Of a stretch of 64,000 nt of DNA, positions 7,721 to 58,606 are shown in pieces. How positions within the stretch are numbered: position 1 is the first letter of the stretch; each line of letters begins with the position of its first letter. Under the pieces are notes generated by a model, which saw only the letters and a program-made list of their open reading frames with translations, did not search any database and was not told where the DNA came from. Both the position numbers and the translations under genes were made by a program. Location: NCBI GenBank assembly GCA_963702895.1, contig OY969767.1, forward strand, positions 2,418,398-2,482,397. Direction: 5' to 3'. This DNA is from an uncultured Elusimicrobia bacterium (GTDB lineage: Bacteria > Elusimicrobiota > Elusimicrobia > 2-01-FULL-59-12).

Positions 7721-8803
7721 GTGATCTTCAGCTCTCATGGCCTACGGAAGGCCTTCTTCGCCCTCCCTTTGATCGTCTTGAGCTCCCTCGATGCGTCCGA
7801 TTCCTCCGGCAAGCGTCTTTGTGAAAAAGATTTTTCCTCCTATAAGAATCAACTCGCGAAGAACCCCTCCGATGATCTGACGTGGACAGAATTCAGGGTC
7901 TGCGCATCGGAACTTAAGAAGTGGGATGAAGCCATTCAGGTCGCGCTCCAGGCCAGACAGAAAAACAAAAACCTGCCCCAGCCTTATCTCATCCTCGGAC
8001 TCGCCCAAATGCACCAGAAGAATTTTGAGAGAGCCATTGAGCATTTCGACCAAAGCATTGCCCTCAACTCCATGCAGCCCCTCGCCTACTTTCAAATGGG
8101 GATGGCCTACCTTTTTCTCAATGAGCCGACCAAGGCGGCCCAAGCAGCAGAGCGAGCCATTGAACTCGACCCCACGAACTCCGCCTACCACAGGCAGCTG
8201 GCTTACACACGGCTCTTGCTGGACGATCTGTCGGGAGCAGAATTGTCGGCCAAGCGAGCCATCCAGTTGGACAAGGAGGACCTCGCGGCCCACAAGATCT
8301 TGGCGAAGATTTATACCAAGGCCGGCAACACCACAGGCGCGGCCTCTGAGCTCGCTTGGATCAAGTCGGCGGAGAGCGCCGCGGGGATTTCCCCGTCGGC
8401 ACTTCCCACCCAAACAGAACCCTCTTCCATGAAAGCCAAGGATGACGGCGAGGACGAGGAGGAAAAGACAGGCAAACAAGAGGATTATCAGGTGATTGGG
8501 CAATGCATCGGGCAGTGGACCCGGATGAAGAGCGCCGTTCTCCGTGGAAATTTGAACGAGTCACTGACCTATTATTCTGATTATCTCGATACGCGGGACC
8601 AATACCGCTCCTCTTTTGAGGCCATGGGGATGGAACGACTCAAGTCCATTTTCGGAAATTTCGGGGATCTTTACGATTGCGAAGTGGTGTTTGCCTCAGC
8701 CCATTGCAAGGCGATGGTCCATGGTCCATCGGGCGCCGTCGTCGTCACAAAGATTCGATTTGAGAAAAATCCCGATAAAGTTTGGAGAATTCGATCTTTT
8801 TAA
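7721..8803 (+). CDS. Secreted tetratricopeptide-repeat (TPR) protein
   Basis: N-terminal signal-like hydrophobic segment followed by several TPR-like repeats (e.g. AYFQMGMAYLFLNEPTKAAQAAERAIELDP). Confidence 0.7.
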   Translation: MIFSSHGLRKAFFALPLIVLSSLDASDSSGKRLCEKDFSSYKNQLAKNPSDDLTWTEFRVCASELKKWDEAIQVALQARQKNKNLPQPYLILGLAQMHQKNFERAIEHFDQSIALNSMQPLAYFQMGMAYLFLNEPTKAAQAAERAIELDPTNSAYHRQLAYTRLLLDDLSGAELSAKRAIQLDKEDLAAHKILAKIYTKAGNTTGAASELAWIKSAESAAGISPSALPTQTEPSSMKAKDDGEDEEEKTGKQEDYQVIGQCIGQWTRMKSAVLRGNLNESLTYYSDYLDTRDQYRSSFEAMGMERLKSIFGNFGDLYDCEVVFASAHCKAMVHGPSGAVVVTKIRFEKNPDKVWRIRSF

Positions 8804-8871
8804 AGCCGCGTCGGTCGTGCCGATACCGCGCGGCTCACCCCGTATCTGATTAACCGGGAAACTGCAGTTGC

Positions 8872-8953
8872 CGTCACCCCGGCGGCCGCCAGCCGGGGTC
8901 TATCAGACGTACAAAACCTGATGGATCCCCTGCTTACTACCGCAGGGGATGAC
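8872..8953. repeat. Composite palindromic (REP-like) element cluster, two hairpin units
   Basis: GTCACCCCGGC-N8-GCCGGGGTCTATCAGACG followed by GATGGATCCCCTGC-N8-GCAGGGGATGACGG. The same flank motifs recur at several other sites in the window. Confidence 0.5.
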
Positions 8954-8994
8954 GGCACTAAAAAGTGCACTGGGTTCAGACGGAGAGAATTGGC

Positions 8995-10157
8995 CAACTG
9001 CAGCGTAATATGAAAGCGGGCCTCAAGAGAGTTATAAACAAGGCTGTCGGTAAAGACACCTTAATAACCCCAGGAGGCCCAAAATCATGATATCCATCGG
9101 CATTGATCATCACAAGAAGTATTGTCAGGTTGTGGCTATGAGGGAGTCTGGCGAGATTGTATGGGAAGGTCAAGTCCCCACACGGCGAGAAGGTCTTGCA
9201 CAAGTTAAAGAGGCGATTCCTCCAGGAGAACCGGTGCAAAGTGTATTGGAATCTGGACGGAGCTGGGGCATTGCCTATGACATTCTGGAAGATCTCGGGA
9301 TGAATCCGGTGTTGGCCAATCCTTATAGATCACGATTGATCGCCGACTCGTTTATCAAAACAGACAAAATCGATGCAACGGCACATGCCCTGCTGCTACG
9401 TTTGGGGGTGACCCCAACAATCCACGTGCCGAGTCGAGATCGGCGGGAACAGAAAGCGCTATTGCGGCACCGACTATGGCTAGTGAAGGGACAAACGGTG
9501 ATCAAGAATCGAGTTCATGATTTACTCGACCGACTTCATGTTGACGTTCCCGAACGAAGCGACTTGTTTGGAGCGCATGGCCGGGCGTGGCTGAAGGCTT
9601 TGGAGCTTCCGGAGATGCACCAGCATTTATTGAGATCCCACATGGCATTGCTCGATGAGATTCGCGTCCAAATTCGAGCGACAGAAGAATGGATTGATCG
9701 GGTTTTAAGGGATCACCCTTTGCGCGAGCTTGTCGATTCATTTCCTGGGGTCGGCAAGATCTTAAGTGCTCTGATGGCCTTGGAAATTGACACCATTGAA
9801 CGGTTTCCGACGGCTGCGCGGTTTGCATCGTACTGTGGCGTGGTGTGTAGTACCTACAGTTCAGGGGGTAAGACGTATCACGGAGGATTGATCCCGTCTT
9901 GTAACCGCTATTTACGCTACGCATTAATCGAGGCCTGTTGGACGGCTGTATCTGTATCACCGTACTTTAAAGCCTTTTATCAGCAACGAAGAATTCGAAA
10001 GCTGTCATCGGTCGCTATTGTGGCAGTGGCCAGAAAGATGGCAGAGATCATGTGGGTATGCCTGAAGAACAAGAGGAAGTATAAGGAAAAGATGTATCGA
10101 TTTGGTCGAGTCGCCTTGGCGAAATCTTAACGGAAGCCGCGTTTAACTGCAGCGTAA
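8995..10157 (+). mobile_element. IS110-family insertion sequence (approximate boundaries)
   Basis: Contains a DEDD-type IS110 transposase ORF. Region is flanked by a 13-bp direct repeat AACTGCAGCGTAA (about 8995-9007 and 10145-10157), lacks obvious terminal inverted repeats as is typical for IS110, and is lower in GC than its surroundings. Confidence 0.6.
9087..10130 (+). CDS. IS110-family transposase
   Basis: N-terminal ISIGIDHHKK (GIDxxK-type DEDD start) and C-terminal block FPGVGKILSALMALEIDTIERFPTAARFASYCGVV..SGGK typical of IS110/IS1111 transposases. Confidence 0.85.
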   Translation: MISIGIDHHKKYCQVVAMRESGEIVWEGQVPTRREGLAQVKEAIPPGEPVQSVLESGRSWGIAYDILEDLGMNPVLANPYRSRLIADSFIKTDKIDATAHALLLRLGVTPTIHVPSRDRREQKALLRHRLWLVKGQTVIKNRVHDLLDRLHVDVPERSDLFGAHGRAWLKALELPEMHQHLLRSHMALLDEIRVQIRATEEWIDRVLRDHPLRELVDSFPGVGKILSALMALEIDTIERFPTAARFASYCGVVCSTYSSGGKTYHGGLIPSCNRYLRYALIEACWTAVSVSPYFKAFYQQRRIRKLSSVAIVAVARKMAEIMWVCLKNKRKYKEKMYRFGRVALAKS

Positions 10158-10391
10158 GGGACCCGGCCTCGAACCATTACAGTGTCCAGACGTCGTGGAC
10201 GAAGAAAAGTGTGAGTACAGCTTAAGCATCAAGACGAGGCGACGGTAAGAAAAACGCTCAAATAGCTAGTCGCACCACGGCCTACTTCAAAGGCAAGGAG
10301 AGACCTTTTGTCATTAAAGAATTTACTTGCGCCCGCTTTCAGAAAAGTTTTCGGGTTAACAGACCGCAAGGGTGCTTTTTTCAGGAGACGT

Positions 10392-30174: not shown

Positions 30175-32067
30175 ATGGATAAGCCTCTTTCACCGCCGCG
30201 TTTTCGAATCATTCTGCCTTTACTCGTTGCCGTGTTGACGTTCGTGGCCTTTTCCCCAGCGCTCAAGAATGGCTTCCTGGCCTGGGATGACCTGGACAAT
30301 TACGTCAAGAATCCCCACTTTAGAGGTTTTGGCCTGGAGCACCTCCGGTGGATGTTCACCACCTACCACATGGGGCCGTACCAGCCTTTGAGTTGGCTCA
30401 CGAGCGCCTTGGATTACAAAATATGGGCGTTGGACCCAAAGGGTTATCACCTCACGAACCTTCTGATTCAGAGTCTCAATGGTGTTGTGTTCTTTTATTT
30501 CGTACGGCGGGTCCTTCTGTTCGCTTGGGATCGACCGGATACACAGAGGAATATTCTAGGGGCATCGTTTCTTGCCGCTTTGTTTTTTTCCATCCATCCT
30601 CTCCGTGTGGAGTCGGTGGTCTGGGCGACGGAACGCCGCGACGTTCTTTCAGGGCTCTTCTTTCTGTTGGCAGGCTGGGCGTATCTGAAGCGCTGGCCAA
30701 CCCTGACCGGAGGGCCGGAAGAAACGCGGTGGTACCCATGGTCCCTGGTGCTCTTTCTTCTCGGTCTCTTATCCAAAGCAACCACGGTTGGGCTCCTCTG
30801 GGTCTTGATAGCGCTGGATGTTTTCCCTCTGCGCCGCCTGGCGACGGATCCCCGCCGGTGGTTCAGGCGGGAGAGCTGGCCGATTTGGCGCGAGAAGATT
30901 CCGTTCTTCGTCCTGGGAGCTGCCGCCGTGATCAACGGCGCCCTGGGCCTCACCCAAGCGATGAGTCCTTACAGTCTTACGGAGCGCCTGTCGTTCTTCT
31001 TCTATGGGACCATCTTCTACCTTCAAAAAACGATTTGGCCTGGCGAGTTGTCGCCTCTGTATGAAGTGCCGTACGTCTTTCAAAGCATGGCAGGCTCGTT
31101 TGCTGCCTGCGCCATTCTTTCGCTTGTGCTGACGGCCATCTTCCTTGGCCTCTATCGCCGTTCTCCGGCCTTCCTCCTCGCCTGGGGATGCTACCTCCTC
31201 ATCTTCGCGCCGGTCTCGGGGCTCGCCCAAAACGGCCCGCAGCTGGTCGCCGCGCGCTACAGCTATTTATCCTGCATTCCGTGGCCTTTTCTCCTGGCGG
31301 GATTTCTCCTCAAGCGCCGTTCCGCGTGGCTGCCGATGGCCGCGCTCTTGGGGGTGCTGGGATGGCAGACATGGGCGCAAACTCACCATTGGCGGGATGA
31401 TCTGTCCCTGTGGGGACATGCCCTGGAGATGGATCCCAAGAACAGCCGGGCCCATAACAATTACGGCGCGGCGCTGATGAAGAAGGGCCGCCTGGAAGAA
31501 GCCGCGGCCCACTATGAACAATCCCTGGAGCTGAACCCGACCCTGGCGGAAGCTTACCGGGACATGGGGCTTGTGCTCATGGAACAAAAGAAGCCGCAAG
31601 AGGCCCTCGCCTATTACAAGAATGCTGAAGCGCTTCGCGCTTCAGTTCCTGAGCTGGCCGTCAACATGGCAGCGGCTTACTACGCGCTTGGCAAGATCGA
31701 TGAAGCGATTACGTACTACCAAAAAGCGCTTGATCTGCACACGCCCCATGAGGCGGAAGTGTTCAGCAACCTGGCCCTGTCTTATATGCTCAAGGGCAAC
31801 ACCGAAATGGCGATCGCCTATTATGAGAAAGCAAGAAACCTCAGGCCCGATCTTCCGCAGGTCCGGCTGAACCTCGCGACGGCCTACGCGAAGCTCGGCC
31901 GACGGGAAGAAGCCATCAAGGAAGCGCAAGCGGCGCTGGATATAAAACCGGACTATGCCAAGGCCCACTATCTGTTGGGGAAGCTTTTGACTGAATCCGG
32001 GAGAGCTGAGGAAGGCGCGGAACATCTTCGTCAAGCCGAACGCTTGGGCCTTCCTACGAAGAAGTAA
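30175..32067 (+). CDS. DUF1736 membrane domain fused to TPR repeats (TMTC-like putative protein O-glycosyltransferase)
   Basis: N-terminal multi-helix membrane domain (FLAWDDLDNYVKNPHFRGF ... ) followed by at least six TPR repeats (AHNNYGAALMKKGRLEEAAAHYEQSLELNP etc.). Confidence 0.75.
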   Translation: MDKPLSPPRFRIILPLLVAVLTFVAFSPALKNGFLAWDDLDNYVKNPHFRGFGLEHLRWMFTTYHMGPYQPLSWLTSALDYKIWALDPKGYHLTNLLIQSLNGVVFFYFVRRVLLFAWDRPDTQRNILGASFLAALFFSIHPLRVESVVWATERRDVLSGLFFLLAGWAYLKRWPTLTGGPEETRWYPWSLVLFLLGLLSKATTVGLLWVLIALDVFPLRRLATDPRRWFRRESWPIWREKIPFFVLGAAAVINGALGLTQAMSPYSLTERLSFFFYGTIFYLQKTIWPGELSPLYEVPYVFQSMAGSFAACAILSLVLTAIFLGLYRRSPAFLLAWGCYLLIFAPVSGLAQNGPQLVAARYSYLSCIPWPFLLAGFLLKRRSAWLPMAALLGVLGWQTWAQTHHWRDDLSLWGHALEMDPKNSRAHNNYGAALMKKGRLEEAAAHYEQSLELNPTLAEAYRDMGLVLMEQKKPQEALAYYKNAEALRASVPELAVNMAAAYYALGKIDEAITYYQKALDLHTPHEAEVFSNLALSYMLKGNTEMAIAYYEKARNLRPDLPQVRLNLATAYAKLGRREEAIKEAQAALDIKPDYAKAHYLLGKLLTESGRAEEGAEHLRQAERLGLPTKK

Positions 32068-32079
32068 ACCCAAATGTTC

Positions 32080-32205
32080 GTCACCCCGGCGGATTGTTAG
32101 CCGGCCCTCCAGACGCCCGGCGGGCCGTCCGCCCTGCCGTGTGGCGGACGGAGTCTATCATCGACGAAAAAGACATGATGGATCCCGGCTTTCGCCGGGA
32201 TGACG
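32080..32205. repeat. Composite palindromic (REP-like) element cluster, three hairpins
   Basis: GTCACCCCGGCGG...; CCGTCCGCC-N9-GGCGGACGG; GATGGATCCCGGC-TTTC-GCCGGGATGACGG. Same flank motifs as the 8872-8953 cluster. Confidence 0.5.
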
Positions 32206-32300
32206 GCATAGTAGAGTTTGCTTATTACGGACGATAACACCGTTTCATTCGACAATTTTCGGGTTAATACGTCTATTAGGTTAGAGAGGCAAAGGAACGA

Positions 32301-33347
32301 TCAAGAGGTTTTCGCGGCGGGCTCGTAAGCGCAATAGGGTTCTTCCGACTGGACGTTCCCCGTCGCGTAATACCCTCGGGCACGACACCCGCCACAGACA
32401 TCCTTAAAGTCGCACACCCCGCAGCGACCTTCCAACAGGTCTGAGTTTCGCAGCGAACGAAAGAGCGTGGCGCTCTCCCAAATCTTCTGGAAGGGCTCTT
32501 GGCGAATGTTGCCAGCCGCCTGGGGCAAGTAGCCGCAAGGGAACACGTCACCCTTGTGCGAGATAAAGCACATGTGAATGCCGGCCAGGCACCCTTTGCG
32601 GTCGCTCGAGATGGGGTTGGCCTGTGGTGCTTCAAGACTTTCATGCTCTATACGGTAGATGTGCGGCGCGCAAATGGCTTTGAGCGGAAGGGACCCTGGC
32701 TTGTCGTGCTCGCAAACCCACTTGAGCCATTCTTCCACTTCGGAGCTGCTCAGCATCTGGGAGTCGGCGATCTGGACCCCGCAACCCACGGGCACAAGGA
32801 GAAAGAGGTAGAGCGCCGCTGCCTTGGACTCTTTGGCGAGCGCATAGACCTGCTCGATCTGGTCCTTGTTTTGACGCGTGACGGTGAAATTGATCTGGAC
32901 CTTCAAGCCAGCCTCACGCAGAAGACTCATGCCCTGGAGTGTTTTTTCAAAAGTGCCGGGGCCTCTAAATTTGTCATGGGTCTCCGCTGTTGCACCATCC
33001 AGGGAAACCGAGGCGTAATAAATCCCGACTTGCCGAATCTTTTCAGCCATGGGCTTGTCGACAAGGGTTCCGTTCGTCGAAAGCGCTATGGGCAGGCCGC
33101 AATTCTTGGCGTAGGCCGCGAGCTCAAATAAGTCCTTACGGTATAAGGGTTCTCCGCCAGAAAAGATGAGCACAGGCCTTCCCATGGACTGCAGGTCCTT
33201 GATGAGTGCCATGCCCTCTTCCGTCGTGAGTTCGTCCTTGGCGGGCTGATCCAAAATATCCAAGCGACGGCAATGGATGCAACGCAAGTTGCAGCCTGCG
33301 GTCGTTTCCCAATACACCCTTCGTAAGTGAGGATTCCAAACGGTCAT
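32301..33347 (-). CDS. Radical SAM enzyme with C-terminal SPASM domain (AhbD/NirJ-like)
   Basis: CNLRCIHC CxxxCxxC radical-SAM cluster motif near the N-terminus and a Cys-rich SPASM-type C-terminus (CGVCDFKDVCGGCRARGY...EPYC). Confidence 0.8.
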   Translation of the reverse strand: MTVWNPHLRRVYWETTAGCNLRCIHCRRLDILDQPAKDELTTEEGMALIKDLQSMGRPVLIFSGGEPLYRKDLFELAAYAKNCGLPIALSTNGTLVDKPMAEKIRQVGIYYASVSLDGATAETHDKFRGPGTFEKTLQGMSLLREAGLKVQINFTVTRQNKDQIEQVYALAKESKAAALYLFLLVPVGCGVQIADSQMLSSSEVEEWLKWVCEHDKPGSLPLKAICAPHIYRIEHESLEAPQANPISSDRKGCLAGIHMCFISHKGDVFPCGYLPQAAGNIRQEPFQKIWESATLFRSLRNSDLLEGRCGVCDFKDVCGGCRARGYYATGNVQSEEPYCAYEPAAKTS

Positions 33348-36589: not shown

Positions 36590-37075
36590 CTCCCGGACCT
36601 GGGCGCCGCACGACCGGCGCTCGCCCGACTATAGTGTGTCGGGTGAACCTAGACGAAGTGCAAAACTCCCGGACTAGGATTCGAGCGCCACACTTCGGGC
36701 GCTCGCCCGACTGTTGTGTGTCGGGTGAACCTAGACGAAGTGCAAAACTCCCGGACTAGGATTCGAGCGCCACACTTCGGGCGCTCGCCCGACTGTTGTG
36801 TGTCGGGTGAACCTAGACGAAGTGCAAAACTCCCGGACTAGGATTCGAGCGCCACACTTCGGGCGCTCGCCCGACTGTTGTGTGTCGGGCGAACCTAGAC
36901 GAAGTGCAAAACTCCCGGACTAGGATTCGAGCGCCACACTTCGGGCGCTCGCCCGACTGTTGTGTGTCGGGCGAACCTAGACGAAGTGCAAAACTCCCGG
37001 ACTAGGATTCGAGCGCCACACTTCGGGCGCTCGCCCGACTGTTGTGTGTCGGGCGAACCTAGACGAAGTGCAAAA
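36590..37075 (-). repeat. Tandem array of six head-to-tail ~82-bp units (five 82-bp plus one degenerate 76-bp distal copy), each a tRNA-Gln 3'-end copy with a two-hairpin insert
   Basis: The motif CAAAACTCCCGGACTAGG recurs at a strict 82-bp period (36661, 36743, 36825, 36907, 36989, 37071). Units contain two perfect 7-bp hairpins, GCCCGAC-N8-GTCGGGC and GAGCGCC-N8-GGCGCTC. No unique spacers. Confidence 0.85.
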
Positions 37076-37146
37076 CTCCCGGACTAGGATTCGAACCTAG
37101 ACTAAGGGATTCAGAGTCCCTCGTGCTACCGTTACACAATCCGGGA
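37076..37146 (-). tRNA. tRNA-Gln (anticodon CUG), 71 nt, CCA not encoded
   Basis: Manual cloverleaf: acceptor TCCCGGA/TCCGGGA with U1-A72 and G73 discriminator (both typical of bacterial tRNA-Gln); D-arm GTGT-AACGGTA-GCAC; anticodon arm AGGGA-CTCTGAA-TCCCT (CUG at about 37112-37114 on the minus strand); T-arm CTAGG-TTCGAAT-CCTAG. Confidence 0.8.
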
Positions 37147-37330
37147 GTTTTGCACTCCATATGCCAGAGTCCCTCGTGCTACCTAACCTTTATCCTTCGA
37201 CTCCGCACGCCCTGAGCGCAATCGAAGGACTCGTTCCGCTTAGGATGGTTCGGCTCGTATCACTGATGGTGAGCGAGGTCGCCAAACATCTGGCGACCGA
37301 GTCGAACCAGACCCTCCGAAAGCATGACTC

Positions 37331-37849
37331 TTATGGTTTGATGATTTCCGGTCCTTTGCTCACGCCGGGCGGGATGATTATATCAGGGCCTTTTTTCTCC
37401 GTCGCCTTTTCGGCGGACGCCTCGGACTTGCGGACTTCGTCAGCAAAGTTGAGCTCCAGGTCGGACACCAGGTTGTCGAGCATCTCCTGTTCTTTGACGC
37501 TCAAGTTTCCTTCCGTCTTTTCCTGAAGCATGCGCAAGAACTCAATCGAGATGCGGGCCTGATCGATGTCCTTTTCGATCTTCTGGGTCACCGGATGGGG
37601 CACTTTCCCCAGCTGCGCCCAGGCGGCAGACCCCAAGGACATCACCAGCGTCAAAAACCGGTAATCGTCCACAACGCTATCAGGCGGACGAGCGCCTGTT
37701 GTGTGGCGCTCGGCTTCTCCTGGCATTTCAATTTTTTCTTCTGACACAACCACCCTCCTTGCCGTCACCCCAGCGGATTGTGAGCCGGGGTCCATCGTTA
37801 TTGGCGTAGGCATGATGGATCCCCCACTTACAGCCGTGGGGGATGACAC
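37331..37849 (-). CDS. DUF1844-like protein; N-terminal region overlaps a palindromic repeat, so the true start may be internal
   Basis: C-terminal part (LTLVMSLGSAAWAQLGKVPHPVTQKIEKDIDQARISIEFLRMLQEKTEGNLSVKEQEMLDNLVSDLELNF) matches the small conserved family commonly encoded beside gltX. The N-terminal about 40 codons lie on palindromic-repeat sequence. Confidence 0.55.
   Translation of the reverse strand: MSSPTAVSGGSIMPTPITMDPGSQSAGVTARRVVVSEEKIEMPGEAERHTTGARPPDSVVDDYRFLTLVMSLGSAAWAQLGKVPHPVTQKIEKDIDQARISIEFLRMLQEKTEGNLSVKEQEMLDNLVSDLELNFADEVRKSEASAEKATEKKGPDIIIPPGVSKGPEIIKP
37762..37849. repeat. Palindromic element pair overlapping the 5' end of the DUF1844-like ORF
   Basis: CATGATGGATCCCCCA-CTTACAGCC-GTGGGGGATGACAC plus an adjacent GGACCCCGGCTCACAATCCGCTGGGGTGACGG unit. 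Near-identical to the element inside metH at about 47011-47127. Confidence 0.5.
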
Positions 37850-39334
37850 CTAGATTACTTTTGCCTGCAAAAGTTGTTGGGCCTTCTTAATACGCTCGAG
37901 CGTGCGTTTCTTTCCTAAAAATTCCACCATGTGCCAAAGGCTTGGCCCTTCCGTCCGCCCGGACACGCAAACGCGCAAGGGATGAAACACGGCACCGTTC
38001 TTGACCCCTTTATCTTTGGCCAAGGTCTTGCATAGGTTCTCAATGCCCGGCACGTCAAAGGGCTCAAGCGCCGCCAGGCGCTTGACAAGTTCTTCGATGA
38101 TCCCCGCAGCACCCTCGGCGCGAAGCACTTTGCCCACCGCCTCCTCTCGATACTCGTAATCATCCCAGAGAAGAAAATCCGTGAGCTTCGGAACATCCGA
38201 GAGCAGCTTGACTTTTTCGAGCTCGAGGGCGACCGCTGCCTCATAAGTGGACGCAGGCACAGCGGATATGTCTTTGCCCTTGTAGAAGGGTTCCGCCAGG
38301 GCAGCCAGTTCCCGAGCGGACGTTTTGCGGATGTATTCGCCGTTCATCCACAAAAGCTTCGTGGGATCAAAGGTCGCGGCGCTTTTGCCGCAGCGTTCAA
38401 TCTGAAATTTTTCCACCATCTCTTGCTGCGTGAACAGCTGCTGGCTGTCTTCGGTCCCCCAGCCAAGAAGAGCGAGATAATTCAGCAGCGCGTTCGGGAG
38501 ATACCCCGCGTCCCGGTACTCCGTGACAGAGGTCGCGCCATGCCGCTTGGAGAGCCGGGCGCCATCGGAACCCAGGATCATCGCCAGATGCGCAAATTGT
38601 GGCACCTGCCAGCCCAGCGCCTCGTAAACGAGCATCTGCCGCGGCGTGTTGGAGAGGTGGTCATCGCCGCGGATCACATGGCTGATCTTCATGAGATGGT
38701 CGTCCACCACGCAAGCGAAGTTGTAGGTCGGCACCCCCGTCGACTTGAGGACCACGAAATCTTCCATGAGAGCATTCTCAAAAACTTTGACGCCATGGAT
38801 GAGATCCGTAAAGCGCGTCTCGCCCACATGCGGGGTCTTAAAACGGATGGATTTCTTCCGCCCCTGGGCTTCCTTGGCTTTTCGCTCATCAGCGCTCAGG
38901 TTGCGGCACCTGCCGTCATACTTGGGAGGCCTTTTGGCAAGGAGCGCGAGCTCCCGCATTTTCTCCACTTCTTCTGGAGTGCAGTAACAGGGATAGGCAA
39001 ACCCCTTCTTCAGCAGCTCGTCGCACGCGGCCCAATAGCCTGCCAGGCGTTGCATCTGATAGTAGGGACCATAGTCGCCCTTCACTCCTCTGCCATCGGC
39101 GGTTGGCCCTTCGTCCCAATCGAGGCCCAGCCACTTCATGGACTCGAGGATCCCGTTGACAGACTCATCTGTGGAGCGCACTTCATCGGTATCTTCAATC
39201 CGAAGAATGAACGTCCCCTGATGGTGACGGGCAAAGAGCCAGTTAAACAGGGCTGTACGCGCCCCGCCGATATGGAGGAAACCCGTGGGCGAAGGCGCAA
39301 ACCGGACGCGGATAGACGGTTTATCCATAGACAT
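37850..39334 (-). CDS. gltX: Glutamyl-tRNA synthetase
   Basis: HIGH-region (RFAPSPTGFLHIGGARTALFN) and KMSKS-like RLSKRHG. 494 aa. Confidence 0.9.
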   Translation of the reverse strand: MSMDKPSIRVRFAPSPTGFLHIGGARTALFNWLFARHHQGTFILRIEDTDEVRSTDESVNGILESMKWLGLDWDEGPTADGRGVKGDYGPYYQMQRLAGYWAACDELLKKGFAYPCYCTPEEVEKMRELALLAKRPPKYDGRCRNLSADERKAKEAQGRKKSIRFKTPHVGETRFTDLIHGVKVFENALMEDFVVLKSTGVPTYNFACVVDDHLMKISHVIRGDDHLSNTPRQMLVYEALGWQVPQFAHLAMILGSDGARLSKRHGATSVTEYRDAGYLPNALLNYLALLGWGTEDSQQLFTQQEMVEKFQIERCGKSAATFDPTKLLWMNGEYIRKTSARELAALAEPFYKGKDISAVPASTYEAAVALELEKVKLLSDVPKLTDFLLWDDYEYREEAVGKVLRAEGAAGIIEELVKRLAALEPFDVPGIENLCKTLAKDKGVKNGAVFHPLRVCVSGRTEGPSLWHMVEFLGKKRTLERIKKAQQLLQAKVI

Positions 39335-44384: not shown

Positions 44385-45206
44385 ATGAGACGGCGAGCTT
44401 GGCTTTCCTTGCTTCTTTTGGGGTTCTGTGTGTTCAATTTGGCTCCGGGGTCAGAGGCCCGCGTGAAGATTTCGAAGCTTGCTGAGAAATTGGTTTACGG
44501 CGACCAGCCCACGAGGCTCGCCGGGATTGAAGAGTTCAACAAGCTGCCCGCGGAAGCCCAGCAAAAACTGGTACCTGATTTTATGGTCGCCATGAGCGAT
44601 GAAGATCCAGAGGCCCGCAAAATCGCCTCTCGCATCTTGAAAGCGATGGGTGTCCAAGCGGAAGCCCAGGTCCCAGACGCGAAAAAGGAGATCGCCTCAG
44701 AGAAGTCCAAGACCAAGCCCATCGACAAGTGGGAAGAAGAGAAACGCTTAAAACAGGAGGCGAGTCAGGATAAGTGGGCTGATTTAAGAAGCATGCGCTC
44801 GGAAGAGCAGGGGGGCTACGCCTCCATGAAGCAACAACTCGAAAGCGAAAAGAAGGGCCAGGTGTGGATCGATCCCTCCCAGCTCACCACCGAGGCCTTG
44901 GACAAGACCTCGCCTCTCGGTTCTGTGACCGAGGCTTTGCGTGACTCGGATCCGTGGGTGAGAGCACAGGCCGCGCGGCGCCTCGGCACGATCCGGCCCG
45001 CGCCCGTGGAAGCCATCCCCGACCTCATCGCGATGCTGGGTGAGAACATCCCGGAGTCGCGCCGCGCGGCGGCCGCTGCGCTCGGTTCCTTTGGGCCCCT
45101 GGCGGAAAAAGCGCTTCCTGCCCTCACAACGGCCCTCTCCGACCCTGACCCCGCCACGCGGCAGATCGCGCAAGAGGCGATTAAGCAGATTCAAATGCAC
45201 CCGTGA
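44385..45206 (+). CDS. Secreted HEAT-repeat protein
   Basis: Signal peptide; C-terminal HEAT-like repeats (DSDPWVRAQAARRLGTI; ESRRAAAAALGSFG; DPATRQIAQEAIKQI). Confidence 0.6.
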   Translation: MRRRAWLSLLLLGFCVFNLAPGSEARVKISKLAEKLVYGDQPTRLAGIEEFNKLPAEAQQKLVPDFMVAMSDEDPEARKIASRILKAMGVQAEAQVPDAKKEIASEKSKTKPIDKWEEEKRLKQEASQDKWADLRSMRSEEQGGYASMKQQLESEKKGQVWIDPSQLTTEALDKTSPLGSVTEALRDSDPWVRAQAARRLGTIRPAPVEAIPDLIAMLGENIPESRRAAAAALGSFGPLAEKALPALTTALSDPDPATRQIAQEAIKQIQMHP

Positions 45207-48200
45207 CCCGAGACGATTTCAACAAACTCCTTCGCGAACAGGTTCTCGTCTTCGACGGGGCTACAGGCACCAACCTTCAGCTCCACAATCCCACCCTGGA
45301 CGACTATGCCGGCATGGAAGGCTGCACCGAAATTCTTCTTGAAACACATCCGGAATGGATCGAGGAGCTTCACGCCTCCTTCTTTAAAGCGGGATGCCAG
45401 GTCGTGGAGACCAATTCTTTTGGGGCGAATCGTATCGTTTTCACCGAATACGGTCTTGAGGACCGGGTTCATGAGTTTAATGTCAAAGCGGCCCAGCTTG
45501 CTCGGAAAGTCGCCCATGCCTTCAGCGCCCAAGACAAACCCCGTTTTGTCGCGGGCTCCATGGGTCCTGGCACGAAGCTTCCTTCTCTTGGACACACCAC
45601 TTTCGACACACTGCGCCATAACTACCAGGAACAAGCTGAAGGTCTGATCGACGGGGGCGTGGACATCCTCCTGATCGAAACCTGCCAGGATATCCTACAG
45701 GCCAAAGCCGCCACGGTGGGCGTTCTGGACGCTCTTTCCCGCAAGAAGAAGGACCTCCCGATCATGGTGCAGGTCACCGTGGAGTCCACGGGGACTTTGC
45801 TCTTGGGGACCGAAATGGCGGCGGTCATCTCCGCTTTGGAGCCCTATCCCATCGCTTCCCTCGGCATGAACTGTGCGACGGGCCCCCAGGAGATGTCGGA
45901 ACACGTGCGGATCCTGTCCCAGCAGTGGGCCCGGCCTATTTCTGTTCTTCCCAACGCGGGTTTACCCGAAAACGTGGGCGGACGAGCAGTCTATCGGCTC
46001 ACTCCTCAGGAGCTGGCCGAGCATCTGAAAGATTTCGTCACCCGGTTCGGGATCAATATCGTAGGCGGCTGCTGTGGGACCACGCCCGCGCATCTGGCTG
46101 AAGTCGTGAAAGTCATGGAGAAGATCAAGCCTGTTCCGAGAAGCCTCTCAAGCACCCCGGCTTGTTCAAGCCTCTACCTTCAAGTGCCCTTCAAGCAGGA
46201 GCCGAGGCCTCTTATCATCGGTGAACGCACGAATGCCAACGGCTCCAAGAAATTTCGTGAGCTGCTCGCCAAGGATGACTTTGATGCGATCGCCGCCATG
46301 GGAAAAGAAGAGGTGAACGAGGGCGCTCACATGATCGACCTCTGCACAGCTTTTGTGGGCCGGGACGAGGTCCGTGACATGAAGGAATGTGTGAGCCGCA
46401 TGGCGCTCCAGGTGCGCCTGCCGCTCATGATTGACTCCACCGAGGCCCCCGTGATTGAAGAAGCTCTTAAACGTGCGGGCGGACGCTGTGTCATCAATTC
46501 CATCAACCTGGAAGATGGCGAAGAAAGAATGAAGGCGGTCTGCCCTCTGGCCAAGACTTATGGCGCAGCCCTGGTGGCGCTCACAATCGACGAGCAAGGC
46601 ATGGCCAAAACCCGGCAAAAGAAGCTCGCCATCGCCAAGCGCATTCACGATCTGGCCATCAAGCGCTTCGGTCTGCGACCGGAAGATTTGCTGTTCGACG
46701 CTTTGACGTTTACGCTCGGTTCGGGTGACGAGGATTTTCGCAAGGCAGGTCTCGAGACCATCGAGGCCATCCGCCTGATCAAAAAGGAGCTCCCCGGAGT
46801 CTTCACCGTACTGGGCGTTTCCAATATCTCGTTTGGTCTGGCACCCCAGATCCGCCAGGTGTTGAACTCGGTGTTTCTCCATTACGCCATTGAAGCCGGT
46901 CTCGACGCTGCCATTGTCCACGCACGCAAGATCCTGCCCCTCTACAAAATCGATGAGAAAGGACGGGAGCTCGCTCGTAAATTGATTTTTGATGATCGCA
47001 CACCCCTCTCGTCATCCCCCGCGGGTGTCAGCGGGGGATCCATCATGATGGACCCCGGGTCTCCAAACAACAGGCGACCCGGCCCGCCGGACGTGTGGAG
47101 GGCCGGCTTACAATCCGCCGGGGTGACGGCTTCTTTTGATCCTCTGACCGCGCTCATGGCGCACTATGCCGAAACCTCAGAGATCTCTGCGAAAGCGAAT
47201 AAGGAAGAACCCAAGACCATCGAAGAGCATCTCAAGGTCCGTATCATCGACGGGAATAAACAGGGCCTGGAGGGACTGCTCGATGAGGCGATGAAGAAGT
47301 GGGGTCCGCTCGAGATCATCAACACCATACTGCTTGACGGGATGCGGGTGGTGGGCGATTTGTTTGGTTCGGGCCAGATGCAGCTCCCCTTCGTTCTTCA
47401 GTCCGCGGAAACCATGAAAGTGGCGGTGCGTCATCTGGAGCCCTTCATGCCTAAGGCGGACGCTGGTGTTCATAAAGGGAAGCTCGTCCTTGCGACCGTC
47501 AAAGGGGACGTTCACGACATCGGGAAGAACCTCGTCGATATCATCCTCACGAACAACGGCTACAAGGTTTTCAATTTGGGCATCAAGATGTCGATCGATG
47601 AGATCCTCAAGGCTGCCGCGGAAAAGAAGGCCGATGCGATCGGGATGTCAGGCTTGCTCGTCAAATCGACGGCGGTCATGAAGGAAAACTTAGAGGAGAT
47701 GAATAAACGAGGCGTGCAAACGCCGGTCCTTTTGGGTGGGGCGGCTCTCACGCGCCGATTTGTGGAAGAAGATCTCCGGCAGCTCTACAAGGGCTATGTC
47801 TATTATGGGGTGGACGCTTTTGCGGGGCTTCGCATCATGGACGAGCTGACCAACCCTTCCAGAGAAAAGAAGTTGACCCTCTATGAGACGCGTGGCGGTT
47901 CGGGCCAAACCTTGAAAGCGGGAGACTTGCCCTCACCCCACCCCTCTCCCGCCTTCGGCGGGAGAGGGCGGTCGCCAGACGCCTGGCGACCGGGTGAGGG
48001 CACGCTCTATATCCCTCTATCCCCCTCTCCTTCTATTCCTCATCCGCCGTTCTGGGGCAGCCGGGTCGCGCGAGGAATCGCTTTAAAGGATGTCTTCCCC
48101 TATATCAACGAAACGGCCCTCCTCAAAGTGCGCTGGGGCTTTTCCAGGGGGCAAACAAGCGCCGAAGATTACGCGCAACTCCTTAAGGAAACCGTTGGGC

Positions 48201-48904
48201 CGCTCTTTCAGAAGTGGAAAAACTACTGCCTTAAGGAGCAGATACTGGTCCCGCAAGTGGTTTACGGTTATTTCCCTTGCCTGTCTGAAGGAGATGATGT
48301 GGTGGTGTATAGGCCGGAAGATTTGAAAAAGGAATGGGTGCGCTTTAAATTCCCGCGACAAAACACGACTCCGATGCGATGTATCAGTGACTTCTTTCTC
48401 CAAAAGCCGTCATCCCGGCATGCTGTAAGCCGGGATCCATCAGACGTGATGGATCCCCCGCTAAAGTCCGCGGGGGATGACAGAAAGAATTTTGACGTAT
48501 TAGGTTGCTTTGTCGTGACGGTCGGAACCCAGGCAAGCAACAAAGCGCATGCCCTCTTCAAGGAGAACTCCTACAGCGATTATCTCTACCTGCACGGGCT
48601 AAGCGTGGAAACGGCCGAAGCCTTAGCCGAGCACTGGCACCGCCGCATGCGTGAGGAGCTGAACATCCACCAGGAAGATCACCCGGAGGTGCGTGAATGG
48701 TTTCACCAGAAGTACCATGGCGGTCGCTACTCTTTTGGGTATCCCGCCTGCCCCAACCTGGAAGATCAAGCAAAGCTTTTTGAACTGCTGGATCCCCAAC
48801 GCATTGGCGTAGCGCTCTCCGAAGCGTTTCAGTTAGACCCTGAGCAAAGCACCTCCGCCATCGTCCTGCACCACCCCGAAGCCAAATACTTTAACGTCCA
48901 GTAA
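45203..48904 (+). CDS. metH: Cobalamin-dependent methionine synthase (Hcy-binding, pterin-binding, B12-binding and AdoMet-activation domains) carrying three in-frame palindromic insertions
   Basis: Single 1233-aa ORF with Hcy-domain start (VLVFDGATGTNLQ), GCCGTTPAHL, B12-binding region and C-terminal activation domain. Start overlaps the upstream stop. Confidence 0.9.
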   Translation: MTRDDFNKLLREQVLVFDGATGTNLQLHNPTLDDYAGMEGCTEILLETHPEWIEELHASFFKAGCQVVETNSFGANRIVFTEYGLEDRVHEFNVKAAQLARKVAHAFSAQDKPRFVAGSMGPGTKLPSLGHTTFDTLRHNYQEQAEGLIDGGVDILLIETCQDILQAKAATVGVLDALSRKKKDLPIMVQVTVESTGTLLLGTEMAAVISALEPYPIASLGMNCATGPQEMSEHVRILSQQWARPISVLPNAGLPENVGGRAVYRLTPQELAEHLKDFVTRFGINIVGGCCGTTPAHLAEVVKVMEKIKPVPRSLSSTPACSSLYLQVPFKQEPRPLIIGERTNANGSKKFRELLAKDDFDAIAAMGKEEVNEGAHMIDLCTAFVGRDEVRDMKECVSRMALQVRLPLMIDSTEAPVIEEALKRAGGRCVINSINLEDGEERMKAVCPLAKTYGAALVALTIDEQGMAKTRQKKLAIAKRIHDLAIKRFGLRPEDLLFDALTFTLGSGDEDFRKAGLETIEAIRLIKKELPGVFTVLGVSNISFGLAPQIRQVLNSVFLHYAIEAGLDAAIVHARKILPLYKIDEKGRELARKLIFDDRTPLSSSPAGVSGGSIMMDPGSPNNRRPGPPDVWRAGLQSAGVTASFDPLTALMAHYAETSEISAKANKEEPKTIEEHLKVRIIDGNKQGLEGLLDEAMKKWGPLEIINTILLDGMRVVGDLFGSGQMQLPFVLQSAETMKVAVRHLEPFMPKADAGVHKGKLVLATVKGDVHDIGKNLVDIILTNNGYKVFNLGIKMSIDEILKAAAEKKADAIGMSGLLVKSTAVMKENLEEMNKRGVQTPVLLGGAALTRRFVEEDLRQLYKGYVYYGVDAFAGLRIMDELTNPSREKKLTLYETRGGSGQTLKAGDLPSPHPSPAFGGRGRSPDAWRPGEGTLYIPLSPSPSIPHPPFWGSRVARGIALKDVFPYINETALLKVRWGFSRGQTSAEDYAQLLKETVGPLFQKWKNYCLKEQILVPQVVYGYFPCLSEGDDVVVYRPEDLKKEWVRFKFPRQNTTPMRCISDFFLQKPSSRHAVSRDPSDVMDPPLKSAGDDRKNFDVLGCFVVTVGTQASNKAHALFKENSYSDYLYLHGLSVETAEALAEHWHRRMREELNIHQEDHPEVREWFHQKYHGGRYSFGYPACPNLEDQAKLFELLDPQRIGVALSEAFQLDPEQSTSAIVLHHPEAKYFNVQ
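47011..47127. repeat. Palindromic element pair lying in frame inside metH
   Basis: GTCATCCCCCGCGGG-TGTCA-GCGGGGGATCCATCATGATGGACCCCGGG ... GGCTTACAATCCGCCGGGGTGACGG. Encodes SSSPAGVSGGSIMMDPGSPNNRRPGPPDVWRAGLQSAGVTA. Confidence 0.6.
47930..48000. repeat. Nested palindrome (CCCTCACC ... GGGTGAGGG family) lying in frame inside metH
   Basis: CCCTCACCCCACCCCTCTCCCGCC-TTCG-GGCGGGAGAGGGCGGTCGCCAG-ACGC-CTGGCGACCGGGTGAGGG: an outer stem enclosing two hairpins, followed by a CT-rich tract. Encodes PSPHPSPAFGGRGRSPDAWRPGEG. Confidence 0.6.
48409..48482. repeat. Two opposed palindromic units lying in frame inside metH
   Basis: GTCATCCCGGC-ATGCTGTAA-GCCGGGATCCATCAGACGTGATGGATCCCCCGC-TAAAGTCC-GCGGGGGATGACAG. 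Confidence 0.6.
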
Positions 48905-48908
48905 CGTC

Positions 48909-48940
48909 GTCATCCCGGCTTACGTCCTGCCGGGGTGACG
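48909..48940. repeat. Palindromic hairpin immediately after the metH stop, between convergent genes
   Basis: GTCATCCCGGC-TTACGTCCT-GCCGGGGTGACG followed by TTAAAAAATC. May act as a bidirectional terminator or mRNA 3'-end stabiliser. Confidence 0.45.
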
Positions 48941-48949
48941 TTAAAAAAT

Positions 48950-50464
48950 CTATTTCTGGGTGGAGGCCCTGAGGAACTGGAGTCGAGCGGCCGCCGGGAG
49001 TTTGGACGCAGGGATCGCCCGCAGCGACCATTCTTTCCAGCCTCCCTGTAAGCGGCCAAAGGCGGGCTGTGACTGATATTTCGTAGGGATGAGTGCTTTG
49101 AGGGGTGCGTCCTTTTCTCGAAAATCGATGCGCGTATAGACGTCGATGCCTTTGCGCTCAAGATCCACCCGGCCAAAACCGCTGGCCCGGACGCTCGACA
49201 TGACCAGAAGCCCCTCTTGCGCCGTGACGATGCCGTTTTTCGCCTGCCAACGGACGCTGAGCTTGCTAAAAGGGATACCCGTCGACGAGTCGAGATATTT
49301 TTTCTTCAAGTAGGGCATCGATTTGGCTTTGGCCAGTCGTTTAAGGGAACTCGCCGGGAACTCGTAGCGCCCTTCTTGAAGTTCCAGAGAACCCCGCCCT
49401 TCGATCGTGCTCGAGGTGCGACTGGAGAAGACCATTCCGAAGTCTTGGGTGATGCCGGTGAGCTTCCCGGACAATGAGAGATTTTCCCCCGTCACCAGAA
49501 GCAACGCTTCGACCGGCACGGCGCTCACAGCGCCCTCCAAACGCAGTCGCGGCCCCGCGGTCTCAGGCGTGAGAGTCCCCTTGAGCTCACTCTGTCCTCC
49601 AGAGATTTGGGCCGAATGCTCAAAGGCCATCCCAGATCCACTCTCTTTGATGGACAACTGCCATAGGTCCAAGCTCAGCGCTGTGTCGAGGGATGGACTG
49701 ATCGGGAGCCGCGCCAGAAATTGAAGGACAGTGCTCGCCCGGCTCAGGCGCCACGTCGAGGCCTGAGATTTGAGCTCAAAGCCTTGAGGGGTCCTCGTGA
49801 GGCGTGCGGTGAGCGCGTGGGCCTGGTCGGCCACCTCGAGGTCTCCCGTCCACTGGGGATTTGCGAAAAACTGTCCATTGGCGGCAAACGCAAGGCTCAC
49901 CCCCGAAAGAGGCCCCGTGAAGGCGCCACGAACTTCCAGCGTCTCAGGTCTTGGGTTCCAGCTCCCTTCGACAAGGGACAGAACAAGCTCCTGTGGCGCA
50001 CTCGCGTAGGAGTCCACCCAGTGGATCTCCCCTTGCTTCCAATTCACGCGCCGGAGGGTTGACATCTTAGCGCCAGGAAGGCTTGCATCACGCGGCCACC
50101 AGTCGCGGTCGTCCCATTGGCCATTGGGCTTTCGATTGATGACCGCGGACCATCCTTTGATCTCAGCCTCTTCCGGCAAGATTTTTAAGCGAAGGAGGCC
50201 TGAGAAGCTCAAGGGCGCGGAAAGGGTCTCGATTTGGAGAAAAGGCTCCTTTTGGTCGTTCAGGACGGCGATCTGTCCGAGACGAAGGGTTGGCGGCCAG
50301 TATCCGAAGGAGCATTGACCGATCACGACGGGCCGATGGAGGAGGGTGGCGAGGACTTCTTCTATTTTGGCCCGCTGCTGTTCCGGGCGAATCAGGAGTG
50401 GAAGGGTCGCGACCGCCGCCACCAGGACAACGATCAAGAGAACAAAAAACGCTAATCGTTTCAC
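48950..50464 (-). CDS. AsmA-family outer-membrane biogenesis protein
   Basis: N-terminal membrane anchor (FFVLLIVVLVAAVATLPLLI) followed by a long beta-rich periplasmic region, typical AsmA-like layout. Confidence 0.6.
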   Translation of the reverse strand: MKRLAFFVLLIVVLVAAVATLPLLIRPEQQRAKIEEVLATLLHRPVVIGQCSFGYWPPTLRLGQIAVLNDQKEPFLQIETLSAPLSFSGLLRLKILPEEAEIKGWSAVINRKPNGQWDDRDWWPRDASLPGAKMSTLRRVNWKQGEIHWVDSYASAPQELVLSLVEGSWNPRPETLEVRGAFTGPLSGVSLAFAANGQFFANPQWTGDLEVADQAHALTARLTRTPQGFELKSQASTWRLSRASTVLQFLARLPISPSLDTALSLDLWQLSIKESGSGMAFEHSAQISGGQSELKGTLTPETAGPRLRLEGAVSAVPVEALLLVTGENLSLSGKLTGITQDFGMVFSSRTSSTIEGRGSLELQEGRYEFPASSLKRLAKAKSMPYLKKKYLDSSTGIPFSKLSVRWQAKNGIVTAQEGLLVMSSVRASGFGRVDLERKGIDVYTRIDFREKDAPLKALIPTKYQSQPAFGRLQGGWKEWSLRAIPASKLPAAARLQFLRASTQK

Positions 50465-57901: not shown

Positions 57902-58606
57902 ATGATTTCGGCATTATTATTTGATTTTGGGGGCACCCTGGACTCCGATGGCGAGCATTGGCTTAACCGGTTCTATGCCATTTATCCCGATATAGGCTTA
58001 CCCGAAGTGCCTAAACCAAAGATTAAAGAGGCCTTTTACTGGGCTGATGAGCAGGCGAGTATCGACCCTGCCATGCGTCAGGCCGGTCTCAGACAAATGA
58101 CCGAGCTTCACGTCCGCTGGCAATTTCATAAACTGGGGCTCCATGACCGTCAGCTTGAAGTCGAAGCCGCGGCGGCCTTCTACAAACCGGCCAACCGAAT
58201 TCTTCGTCGTAATCGACACGTTCTAGAGAAATTAAAACACGCTGGTTTGAAACTCGGGATCCTCTCGAATTTTTATGGCAACATCGACACACTCTGCAGG
58301 GAATATTCCTTCTCCCCCCATTTGGACATCATCTTGGACTCGGCCGTGATCGGAATAAAAAAGCCTGACCCGAGGCTCTTTGCGCTTGCCTGCGAGCGGC
58401 TGAAGCTACCGGCCCATGAAATCGCTTTTGTCGGCGACTCCTTTGAGCGTGATATCGTCCCAGCGAAAATCCTTGGAATGAAGACGTTTTGGCTTGTTGG
58501 AGATCGCAAGCTCACACCCCCTGAGCCCGCCAAAGTGGACTGCATCCTTCGAAGCCTGGCGGACCTCCCCCATGATCTTGTCCCTCACCACAAAGATCCC
58601 AAATGA
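57902..58606 (+). CDS. HAD-superfamily hydrolase (phosphatase-like)
   Basis: N-terminal LLFDFGGTLD (DxD/G-type motif I) and distal FVGDSFERDI motif. Confidence 0.7.
   Translation: MISALLFDFGGTLDSDGEHWLNRFYAIYPDIGLPEVPKPKIKEAFYWADEQASIDPAMRQAGLRQMTELHVRWQFHKLGLHDRQLEVEAAAAFYKPANRILRRNRHVLEKLKHAGLKLGILSNFYGNIDTLCREYSFSPHLDIILDSAVIGIKKPDPRLFALACERLKLPAHEIAFVGDSFERDIVPAKILGMKTFWLVGDRKLTPPEPAKVDCILRSLADLPHDLVPHHKDPK

Follow-up and report, generated by a model that had tools for sequence, protein, structure and literature searches.

The repetitive extragenic palindromes (REPs) that carry a CGTC tag form a superfamily with four named families, CGTC-1 to CGTC-4, which was defined by Di Nocera, De Gregorio and Rocco (2013, BMC Genomics 14:522; PMC3733652). 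The class has been reported in five phyla, mostly in Alphaproteobacteria, and Elusimicrobiota is not among them; it includes the Rickettsia palindromic elements (RPEs) RPE-4 (family CGTC-4) and RPE-6 (family CGTC-1) and the Neisseria repeat dRS3 (family CGTC-1) (PMC3733652). The tag variants TGTC and CCTC were described in the same work, together with loops of 4 nt in family 1 and 5 nt in families 2-4, other lengths being found in some species (PMC3733652). Moreover, the tyrosine transposase genes of many host species were checked there, none was flanked by CGTC units, and no transposase associated with the class was found (PMC3733652). In this study, a stretch of 64,000 nucleotides from an uncultured Elusimicrobia bacterium (contig OY969767.1) was analysed and is referred to as the window. 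It harbors a palindromic repeat in six clusters, and the sequence features of this repeat fit the CGTC-tagged REP superfamily. The six clusters probably represent one hairpin-forming, non-coding family of CGTC-tagged REPs that was copied in trans and then filtered by selection, and the copies persist only right after stop codons or in frame within linkers and loops of proteins that are predicted to be disordered.

A first-pass annotation of the window had listed hairpin repeats at six places, and hairpins were present at all six. A covariance model was trained on 19 units, of which 2 came from the window and 17 from related contigs. When run with filters off, the model returned 11 units at E<1e-3 in the window, and the next-best match had E=0.71. 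All of these matches fell within the six clusters, which indicated that the list was complete for the window. The clusters, with the model scores of their units, are as follows.

8872-8954: inverted dimer of units 8872-8902 (+) and 8922-8954 (-); 43.9 and 39.4 bits
32079-32205: composite cluster of a long unit at 32079 to about 32162 (+) and a short unit with a GAAA loop at 32179-32205 (-); 39.6 and 20.3 bits; folding z-score -3.8
37763-37848: inverted dimer of units 37763-37794 (+, with a single mismatch in its stem) and 37816-37848 (-, TGTC tag); 36.7 and 32.1 bits
47010-47128: composite dimer within metH, with a left unit at 47010-47042 (+) and a long unit at 47047-47128 (-); 33.4 and 23.3 bits
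48408-48482: inverted dimer within metH, with units 48408-48439 (+) and 48450-48482 (-, TGTC tag); 54.4 and 36.6 bits
48908-48941: double-tagged single hairpin, CGTC-ATCCCGGC-ttacgtcct-GCCGGGGT-GACG; 23.5 bits; folding z-score -4.4

Two related hairpin forms had been distinguished in the annotation, and both of them recur; however, GATGGATCCC...GGGATGAC and GTCAYCCCGGC...GCCGGGGT are one unit on opposite strands and not two types. The canonical unit consists of a (C/T)GTC tag, a first stem arm beginning A(T/C)CCC, a loop, a second stem arm ending GGG(A/G)T and a CCATCA tail. Examples are the units at 8872-8902 (+; CGTC-ACCCCGGC-ggccgcca-GCCGGGGT-CTATCA) and 8922-8954 (-; CGTC-ATCCCCTGC-ggtagtaa-GCAGGGGAT-CCATCA). 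The stem is 8-9 bp long, G+C-rich and starts with AT (or AC) followed by CCC; its first pair is A-T in 27 of 28 units, and its second pair is T-A in 25 of the 28 and C-G in the other three. Five of the seven short window units located by a unit finder have the tag CGTC and two have TGTC. The same two tags were observed in 27 units from related contigs, no other tag occurred in any unit, and GTAG was never found. The loop length of 8-9 nt given by the annotation holds for the window units with the sole exception of the 4-nt GAAA loop at 32179-32205, and the loops share a 3' end of the form ..GT(A/T)A. Most units have the tail CCATCA; that at 8872 reads CTATCA, and CCAGC is seen in the related contig L109.

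The clustering of several units was borne out in five of the six clusters, which are inverted dimers or composites whose tags lie on the outside and whose tails face one another, and the sixth (48908-48941) is a single hairpin tagged at both ends. The long units at 32079 to about 32162 and at 47047-47128 are ordinary units with about 48 extra internal bases, and the two are 94% identical over 49 nt (the match of the former lies at 47080-47128). When a dimer is folded as single-stranded DNA, the predicted structure is an outer tag-tag stem closing around both unit hairpins and a central tail-tail hairpin, with z-scores of -2.4 to -6.3. The lowest of these belongs to 8872-8954, which folds into an outer tag stem around three hairpins at -29.3 kcal/mol (z -6.3), and 48408-48482 gives z-scores of -5.5 as DNA and -5.9 as RNA.

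Chance was ruled out as the source of the family. The pattern GTCAYCCC-N(10-24)-GGGRT had 10 matches in the window versus 0.08 expected from 100 dinucleotide shuffles, and GGGATCCATCA with at most one mismatch had 10 matches versus 1.9 expected. The family is real, and its stems vary yet stay complementary. Among 28 distinct units, changes on both sides were found at six of nine stem pairs, the covariation score was 0.354 versus 0.121 in shuffles, and pairing fell to at most 51% once the 3' partner was slid; all 231 stem cells pair, a complete figure that is partly circular because the units of this set were chosen for pairing. A control free of that choice was provided by a scan of a public genome collection with CGTCATCCC-N(8-30)-GGGATCCATCA, in which units were picked by their flanks only and at least 108 loci were obtained. 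In the 88 distinct interiors among the public-genome matches listed, at least three further complementary bases were present in 85%, versus 2% when shuffled. Furthermore, the window copies are not assembly duplicates, since their stems, loops and flanks all differ; exact duplication by an assembly artefact, named in the annotation as a refutation, was checked in this way and is not the case.

The annotation had regarded the intergenic copies as REP-like or as bacterial interspersed mosaic elements (BIMEs). This description suits four of the six clusters, each of which lies 2-69 nt past a stop codon between convergent or co-directional genes; the other two lie in frame within metH. The dimer 8872-8954 starts 69 nt past the stop of a tetratricopeptide repeat (TPR) gene at 7721-8803. 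The composite cluster 32079-32205 sits 12 nt past a second TPR gene (30175-32067, +), between it and a convergent gene for a radical-SAM/SPASM protein (32301-33347, -). The dimer 37763-37848 begins 2 nt past the stop of gltX (37850-39334, -) and precedes the ribosome-binding site of a DUF1844 gene. A gap of 4 nt separates the single hairpin 48908-48941 from the metH stop, and one of 9 nt, on its other side, from the stop of a convergent AsmA-like gene (48950-50464, -). No T-run followed the units and no unit hairpin was called terminator-like; the sole terminator-like site within any cluster is the inner hairpin of a long unit, at 47073-47088. A reading of the units as terminators was dropped, given that they are without T-tails.

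Two CGTC clusters sit in frame in the gene for cobalamin-dependent methionine synthase without breaking it.

45203-48904 (+): metH, encoding cobalamin-dependent methionine synthase; 1233 amino acids, five Pfam domains and an intact frame

Most of 36 close MetH orthologs are 1148 amino acids long, and alignment with the orthologs revealed three extra segments in the window protein, referred to as sites 1 to 3. Site 1 is the CGTC composite 47010-47128, which lies in the linker between the pterin-binding and B12-cap domains (the Fol/Cap linker) and encodes SSSPAGVSGGSIMMDPGSPNNRRPGPPDVWRAGLQSAGVT, the extra segment reading SSSPAGVSGGSIMMDPG...AGVT. Site 2 is a different, unrelated palindrome (47930-48000) in the linker between the B12 and activation domains. 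Site 3 is the CGTC dimer 48408-48482, which falls in a loop of the S-adenosylmethionine (AdoMet) activation domain, encodes PSSRHAVSRDPSDVMDPPLKSAGDD and, among the MetH orthologs compared, is filled in the window lineage only. The inserts lie outside the Pfam domains or occupy a variable loop. The CGTC inserts at sites 1 and 3, like one in kdpA of contig L115, keep the reading frame and are lacking in other orthologs, which is the behaviour of RPEs. In an AlphaFold model of MetH residues 561-1233 the domains were predicted with confidence, and the inserts appeared as coil with a predicted local distance difference test score (pLDDT) below 50, at model residues 44-81 (site 1), 331-373 (site 2) and 512-531 (site 3); the insert segments are thus predicted to be disordered. 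Open frames made up 48% both in the elements and in random window DNA. An adaptation of the elements for coding was rejected for lack of any excess of open frames, and the in-frame state is best explained by selection after insertion and not by design for coding.

The palindrome at site 2 belongs to a second, unrelated family with copies at 47930-48000 and 58885-58955, which have the form CCCTCACCC..CCCTCTCCCGC-loop-GCGGGAGAGGG, followed by a second hairpin and GGGTGAGGG. These copies fold into a Y shape with z-scores of -8.1 and -3.6. Both are in frame within genes, one in the linker between the B12 and activation domains of metH and the other in a MobA-like NTP-transferase gene (58603-59472), in which the Pfam match spans about 30 extra residues. 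In other lineages of Elusimicrobiota, different palindromes were found at the same MetH loops, at site 3 in contig L119 (protein P0004) and at site 2 in contig L110 (protein P0016). An example of such another palindromic MetH insert is GGACTGAGGACTGAG...CTCAGTCCTCAG, with a z-score of -6.2. The presence of unrelated palindromes at sites 2 and 3 in other lineages indicated that these loops have been hit repeatedly and are recurrent permissive sites.

Comparison with relatives showed that a site filled in one lineage can be empty at the orthologous position in another, and that one sequence type occurs at unrelated loci. The dimer at metH site 1 is also present in the genes for P0002 and P0016, where the left unit is identical at 30-31 of 31 positions; these two MetH proteins are 75-78% identical to the window protein, and the codons beside site 1 differ. 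The exact 31-mer GTCATCCCCCGCGGGYGTCAGCGGGGGATCC was found at seven metagenome loci: metH accounts for two, kdpA for one (in frame) and other places for four, of which at least three are intergenic. The kdpA insert lies in an open reading frame (ORF) of 628 amino acids, between ...QQYT and RMQTIAVGPVASQEAIK. It occupies positions 9952-10016 of L115 (metagenome contig Ga0181520_10003779), its dimer is of the type seen in metH of the P0016 lineage, and the two come from the same sample. In L119 and L120, which are syntenic regions of two sister lineages whose metH is without the site-1 insert, no units were found in 43 kb, as compared with densities of 0.17-0.34 units per kb in the window, L109 and L110 and 0.13-0.86 per kb across related contigs. 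The spacer between gltX and the DUF1844 gene is filled only in the window genome and is empty in four relatives (L109, L110, L119 and L120). The three carriers of site 1 fall in one MetH clade of 12 members (74% bootstrap), and P0002 groups with six insert-free orthologs at 100% support. The proteins of the next MetH clade carry the name Elusimicrobiota. The history of site 1 fits either one gain followed by at least two clean losses or three gains.

The repeat plan is widespread. The loci listed from the public scan belong mostly to Bosea, Beijerinckiaceae and sphingomonads; among the matches listed, the unit plan was also seen in Coxiellaceae, Nitrospirales, Patescibacteria and several Elusimicrobiota, so that the flank-selected units span Alphaproteobacteria, Gammaproteobacteria, Elusimicrobiota, Nitrospirales, Patescibacteria and others. 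The tags-outward arrangement of the window dimers is found in the alphaproteobacterial matches as well. Flank-exact units were additionally observed in contigs labelled Mediterranea massiliensis (L007), a Klebsiella pneumoniae metagenome-assembled genome (MAG; L025) and a Bifidobacterium MAG (L084); these unexpected hosts may reflect mis-binned contigs or horizontal transfer. Carriage by phages was rejected, with one match in 2.9 million viral contigs. At the protein level, a word-indexed search with the 41-residue insert peptide gave no candidates. An exhaustive HMMER search with the insert peptide gave five matches, namely three short ORFs free of Pfam domains, one unrelated repeat protein and one DHH/RecJ-like fragment. 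The long-unit peptide DPGSPxxxRPGPPxVWRAGL recurs in the short ORFs P0245-P0247, which are probably spurious, and at the end of the DHH/RecJ-like fragment P0249, which may be another in-frame insert, in this case in a DNA-repair gene.

A mechanism in two steps would account for these observations. Units would be copied to new sites, now or recently, by an enzyme supplied in trans, and purifying selection would then remove all insertions except the harmless ones. By analogy, the enzyme may act on single-stranded DNA and recognise the hairpin along with the unpaired tag and tail, these two serving as recognition or cleavage determinants. The enzymes of the IS200/IS605 group and the REP-associated tyrosine transposases (RAYTs) use a hairpin and a 5' tetranucleotide. 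Within genes, the sites that would be tolerated are those at which the frame is kept, no stop codon arises and the segment is flexible and at the surface. Several points weigh against copying in trans as the source of the family, in addition to the partial circularity of the pairing figure. Neither the six clusters nor the comparison of filled with empty sites revealed a target-site duplication, and that comparison gave no conserved target sequence either. The near-identical unit at site 1 in three lineages could reflect selection to keep the unit and not mobility. Likewise, the conserved loop of 8-9 nt could point to a role in the host, for instance as a protein-binding site, and not to a purely selfish spread. 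Finally, the copying is read from the distribution of the units only, because no enzyme was identified in the available sequence, which includes 64 kb of the 2.72-Mb source contig.

A bolder form of the mechanism would hold that copying of the units continues, through an undiscovered enzyme or host pathway kept in the unit-bearing lineages of Elusimicrobiota and missing from their unit-free sisters. The metH Fol/Cap linker would then be a preferred target, struck in three lineages independently by one and the same sequence type. We regard this extension as doubtful. If copying is indeed ongoing, the clade would provide the first phyletic handle on the movement of CGTC-tagged REPs, including RPE-4 and RPE-6 of Rickettsia and dRS3 of Neisseria.

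Among the rival explanations, the one that survives best is that the units are mainly host regulatory elements kept by selection (stabilisers of mRNA 3' ends, attenuators, terminators or sites for nucleoid or topology proteins), whose spread is ancient and no longer active. This would agree with the position of all four intergenic clusters 2-69 nt past a stop codon, with the common loop end, with the conservation of unit flanks across phyla and with the identity of the site-1 unit at 30-31 of 31 positions in three lineages whose neighbouring codons have diverged. The lack of T-runs and of any terminator-like unit hairpin argues against it, and the copies in coding sequence (metH twice and kdpA) are hard to square with 3'-end elements. 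Moreover, the sister lineages have no units in their syntenic 43 kb, and the gltX-DUF1844 spacer is empty in four relatives. As the main explanation, regulation by the host is unlikely. It is compatible with copying in trans as a secondary role, and a role of this kind is plausible for the intergenic copies, which, once transcribed, would likely act as 3' stem-loops on the upstream mRNA.

The classical REP system would explain the dimers as REPINs (REP doublets forming hairpins) that are moved by a RAYT whose single-copy gene lies at another place in the genome, with the same units on its flanks. The window units do form spacer-separated inverted dimers like REPINs, and an unpaired tetranucleotide adjoins the foot of the hairpin, as in GTAG REPs; however, the tag is CGTC or TGTC and never GTAG, which places the units in the CGTC-tagged superfamily, for which a RAYT is not the expected partner. 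In the host species examined previously, no tyrosine transposase genes flanked by CGTC units were found (PMC3733652). The annotation had proposed a search for a RAYT-like partner. A single-sequence E. coli RayT probe, run against six-frame translations of about 270 kb in all (the window together with related contigs of about 200 kb), detected none; the best E was 0.26, and the test is a weak one. The gene and Pfam tables of the window neighbours and related contigs contained no Y1 transposase. On the sequence covered, a classical REPIN-RAYT system is improbable.

[quoted passage not shown] Their sizes of 75-127 bp are within the MITE range, and their outer ends form the inverted repeats CCGTCAYCCC...GGGRTGACGG. 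Nevertheless, single units and double-tagged single hairpins exist, the interior stems vary freely and remain paired, as is typical of REPs and not of the deletion derivatives of one IS, and target-site duplications are absent both from the six clusters and from the filled sites when compared with empty ones. The window contains no IS with such ends. A MITE origin is for these reasons very improbable.

The remaining rival concerns an insertion element next to the first cluster.

about 9005-10350 (+): IS110-family element, with a transposase gene at 9087-10130 (Pfam PF01548 and PF02371)

The ends of this element were set by alignment with three related copies (L121-L123), and its transposase is single-copy in the source contig. 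Its left end lies about 50 bp from the dimer 8872-8954, and no unit is interrupted. A guide-like segment at 10142-10160, located 3' of the transposase gene, matches the left flank of the element itself. Within it, 11-13 nt match the left flank and the first bases of the element and co-vary in three copies (the window copy, L121 and L122); in the window the segment is AACTGCAGCGTAA, at 8996 and 10145. The co-varying segment matches AACTGCAG(CG), which is not part of any unit. The 3' non-coding segment looks, from its sequence, like a bridge-RNA guide in an IS1111-like layout; matching a flank that is not a REP, it behaves as such a guide would and points to a non-REP target. The related copies L121-L123 have different flanks, with no units nearby. 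Two further short repeats were noted around the element. AACTGCAG occurs at 8859-8866 and 8997-9004, forming a direct 8-mer repeat that brackets the REP dimer and 50 nt beside it. TTTTCGGGTTAA, at the right junction of the element (10347-10358), recurs at 32254-32265, some 48 nt past the right end of cluster 32079-32205, and this offset equals the spacing between cluster 8872-8954 and the element.

The annotation had taken this neighbourhood as insertion of an IS110-family element next to REP sequences, and members of the family (IS621, ISPpu9/10 and IS1111, with QMITE2/IS1111) are indeed described as targeting REPs. That the units are landing sites of this element is hardly credible, since the proximity of about 50 bp, the REP-targeting relatives and the recurrence of AACTGCAG and TTTTCGGGTTAA near two clusters are set against an element that interrupts no unit, has a guide-like segment matching a non-unit flank, is single-copy in its contig and has related copies in different, unit-free surroundings.

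Elsewhere in the window, a tandem array at 36616-37094 adjoins tRNA-Gln (37075-37147, -) and contains 5.8 copies of an 82-bp unit that are 99% identical. Each 82-bp unit repeats the last 27 nt or so of the tRNA-Gln gene (GTGCAAAACTCCCGGACTAGGATTCGA), and the array looks, by its sequence, like a serial duplication of a tRNA-end attachment site.

The window adds the phylum Elusimicrobiota to the CGTC-tagged REP class. MetH, an essential and well-understood enzyme, carries three palindromic inserts there, with the frame and the predicted domain folds kept. What mobilises CGTC repeats has been an open question since the class was defined in 2013, and a literature search found no later work explaining how they move, nor anything on REPs in Elusimicrobia; searches by the repeat DNA strings and by the repeat-derived peptides gave nothing relevant. 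Close relatives with and without the repeats offer a practical route to the mobilising agent. For annotation, the peptides SSSPAGVSGGS, MDPG..AGVT and PSP..GEG in proteins of this lineage should be read as repeat-derived, and short ORFs that consist solely of such peptides as spurious.

Comparison with known systems places the window repeats as follows. The REPIN-RAYT systems, reportedly described for the GTAG REPs of Pseudomonas and Enterobacteria by Bertels and Rainey in 2011 and by Nunvar and colleagues in 2010, share with them the pair of inverted hairpins as a propagation unit, the unpaired tetranucleotide at the hairpin foot, lineage-specific presence and absence and, probably, numerous copies. 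They differ in the tag, which is CGTC here and not GTAG, and in the RAYT, which was not found in the sequence covered here and is not known for the CGTC class. The dRS3 repeats of Neisseria, which serve as integration sites for elements with IS110/Piv-type recombinases (a link of the sort suggested in the annotation), have the same plan of tag, stem and tail; in the window, however, the IS110-family element lies beside a unit and not inside it, with a guide-like segment that has no match in the unit.

The likeness to the Rickettsia RPEs likewise rests on the plan of tag, stem and tail. In both cases palindromes are inserted in frame in protein genes, the peptide is tolerated and several inserts may occur in one host gene. 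The hosts are different, the one being an obligate intracellular alphaproteobacterium and the other an apparently free-living environmental member of Elusimicrobiota, as judged by the sample sources of related contigs.

With the CGTC superfamily as a whole, the window repeats share the unpaired CGTC or TGTC tag, the stem of 8-9 bp starting with AT and the unpaired CCA tail. Furthermore, both are arranged mostly as inverted dimers that follow ORFs and separate convergent or co-directional genes, and in both some copies are intragenic, encoding 20-45 residues. No transposase was found for the published class, and none was seen here in the window and about 200 kb of related contigs. The differences are the long units with about 48 extra internal bases, the host phylum and the host genes metH and kdpA, which are missing from the published list of REP-carrying genes (PMC3733652). 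The loops differ as well, measuring 4-5 nt in families 1 to 4 and 8-9 nt with a ..GTAA-like end in the window. These long loops argue against membership in the four named families and not against the superfamily, because other loop lengths are allowed in its published description (PMC3733652).

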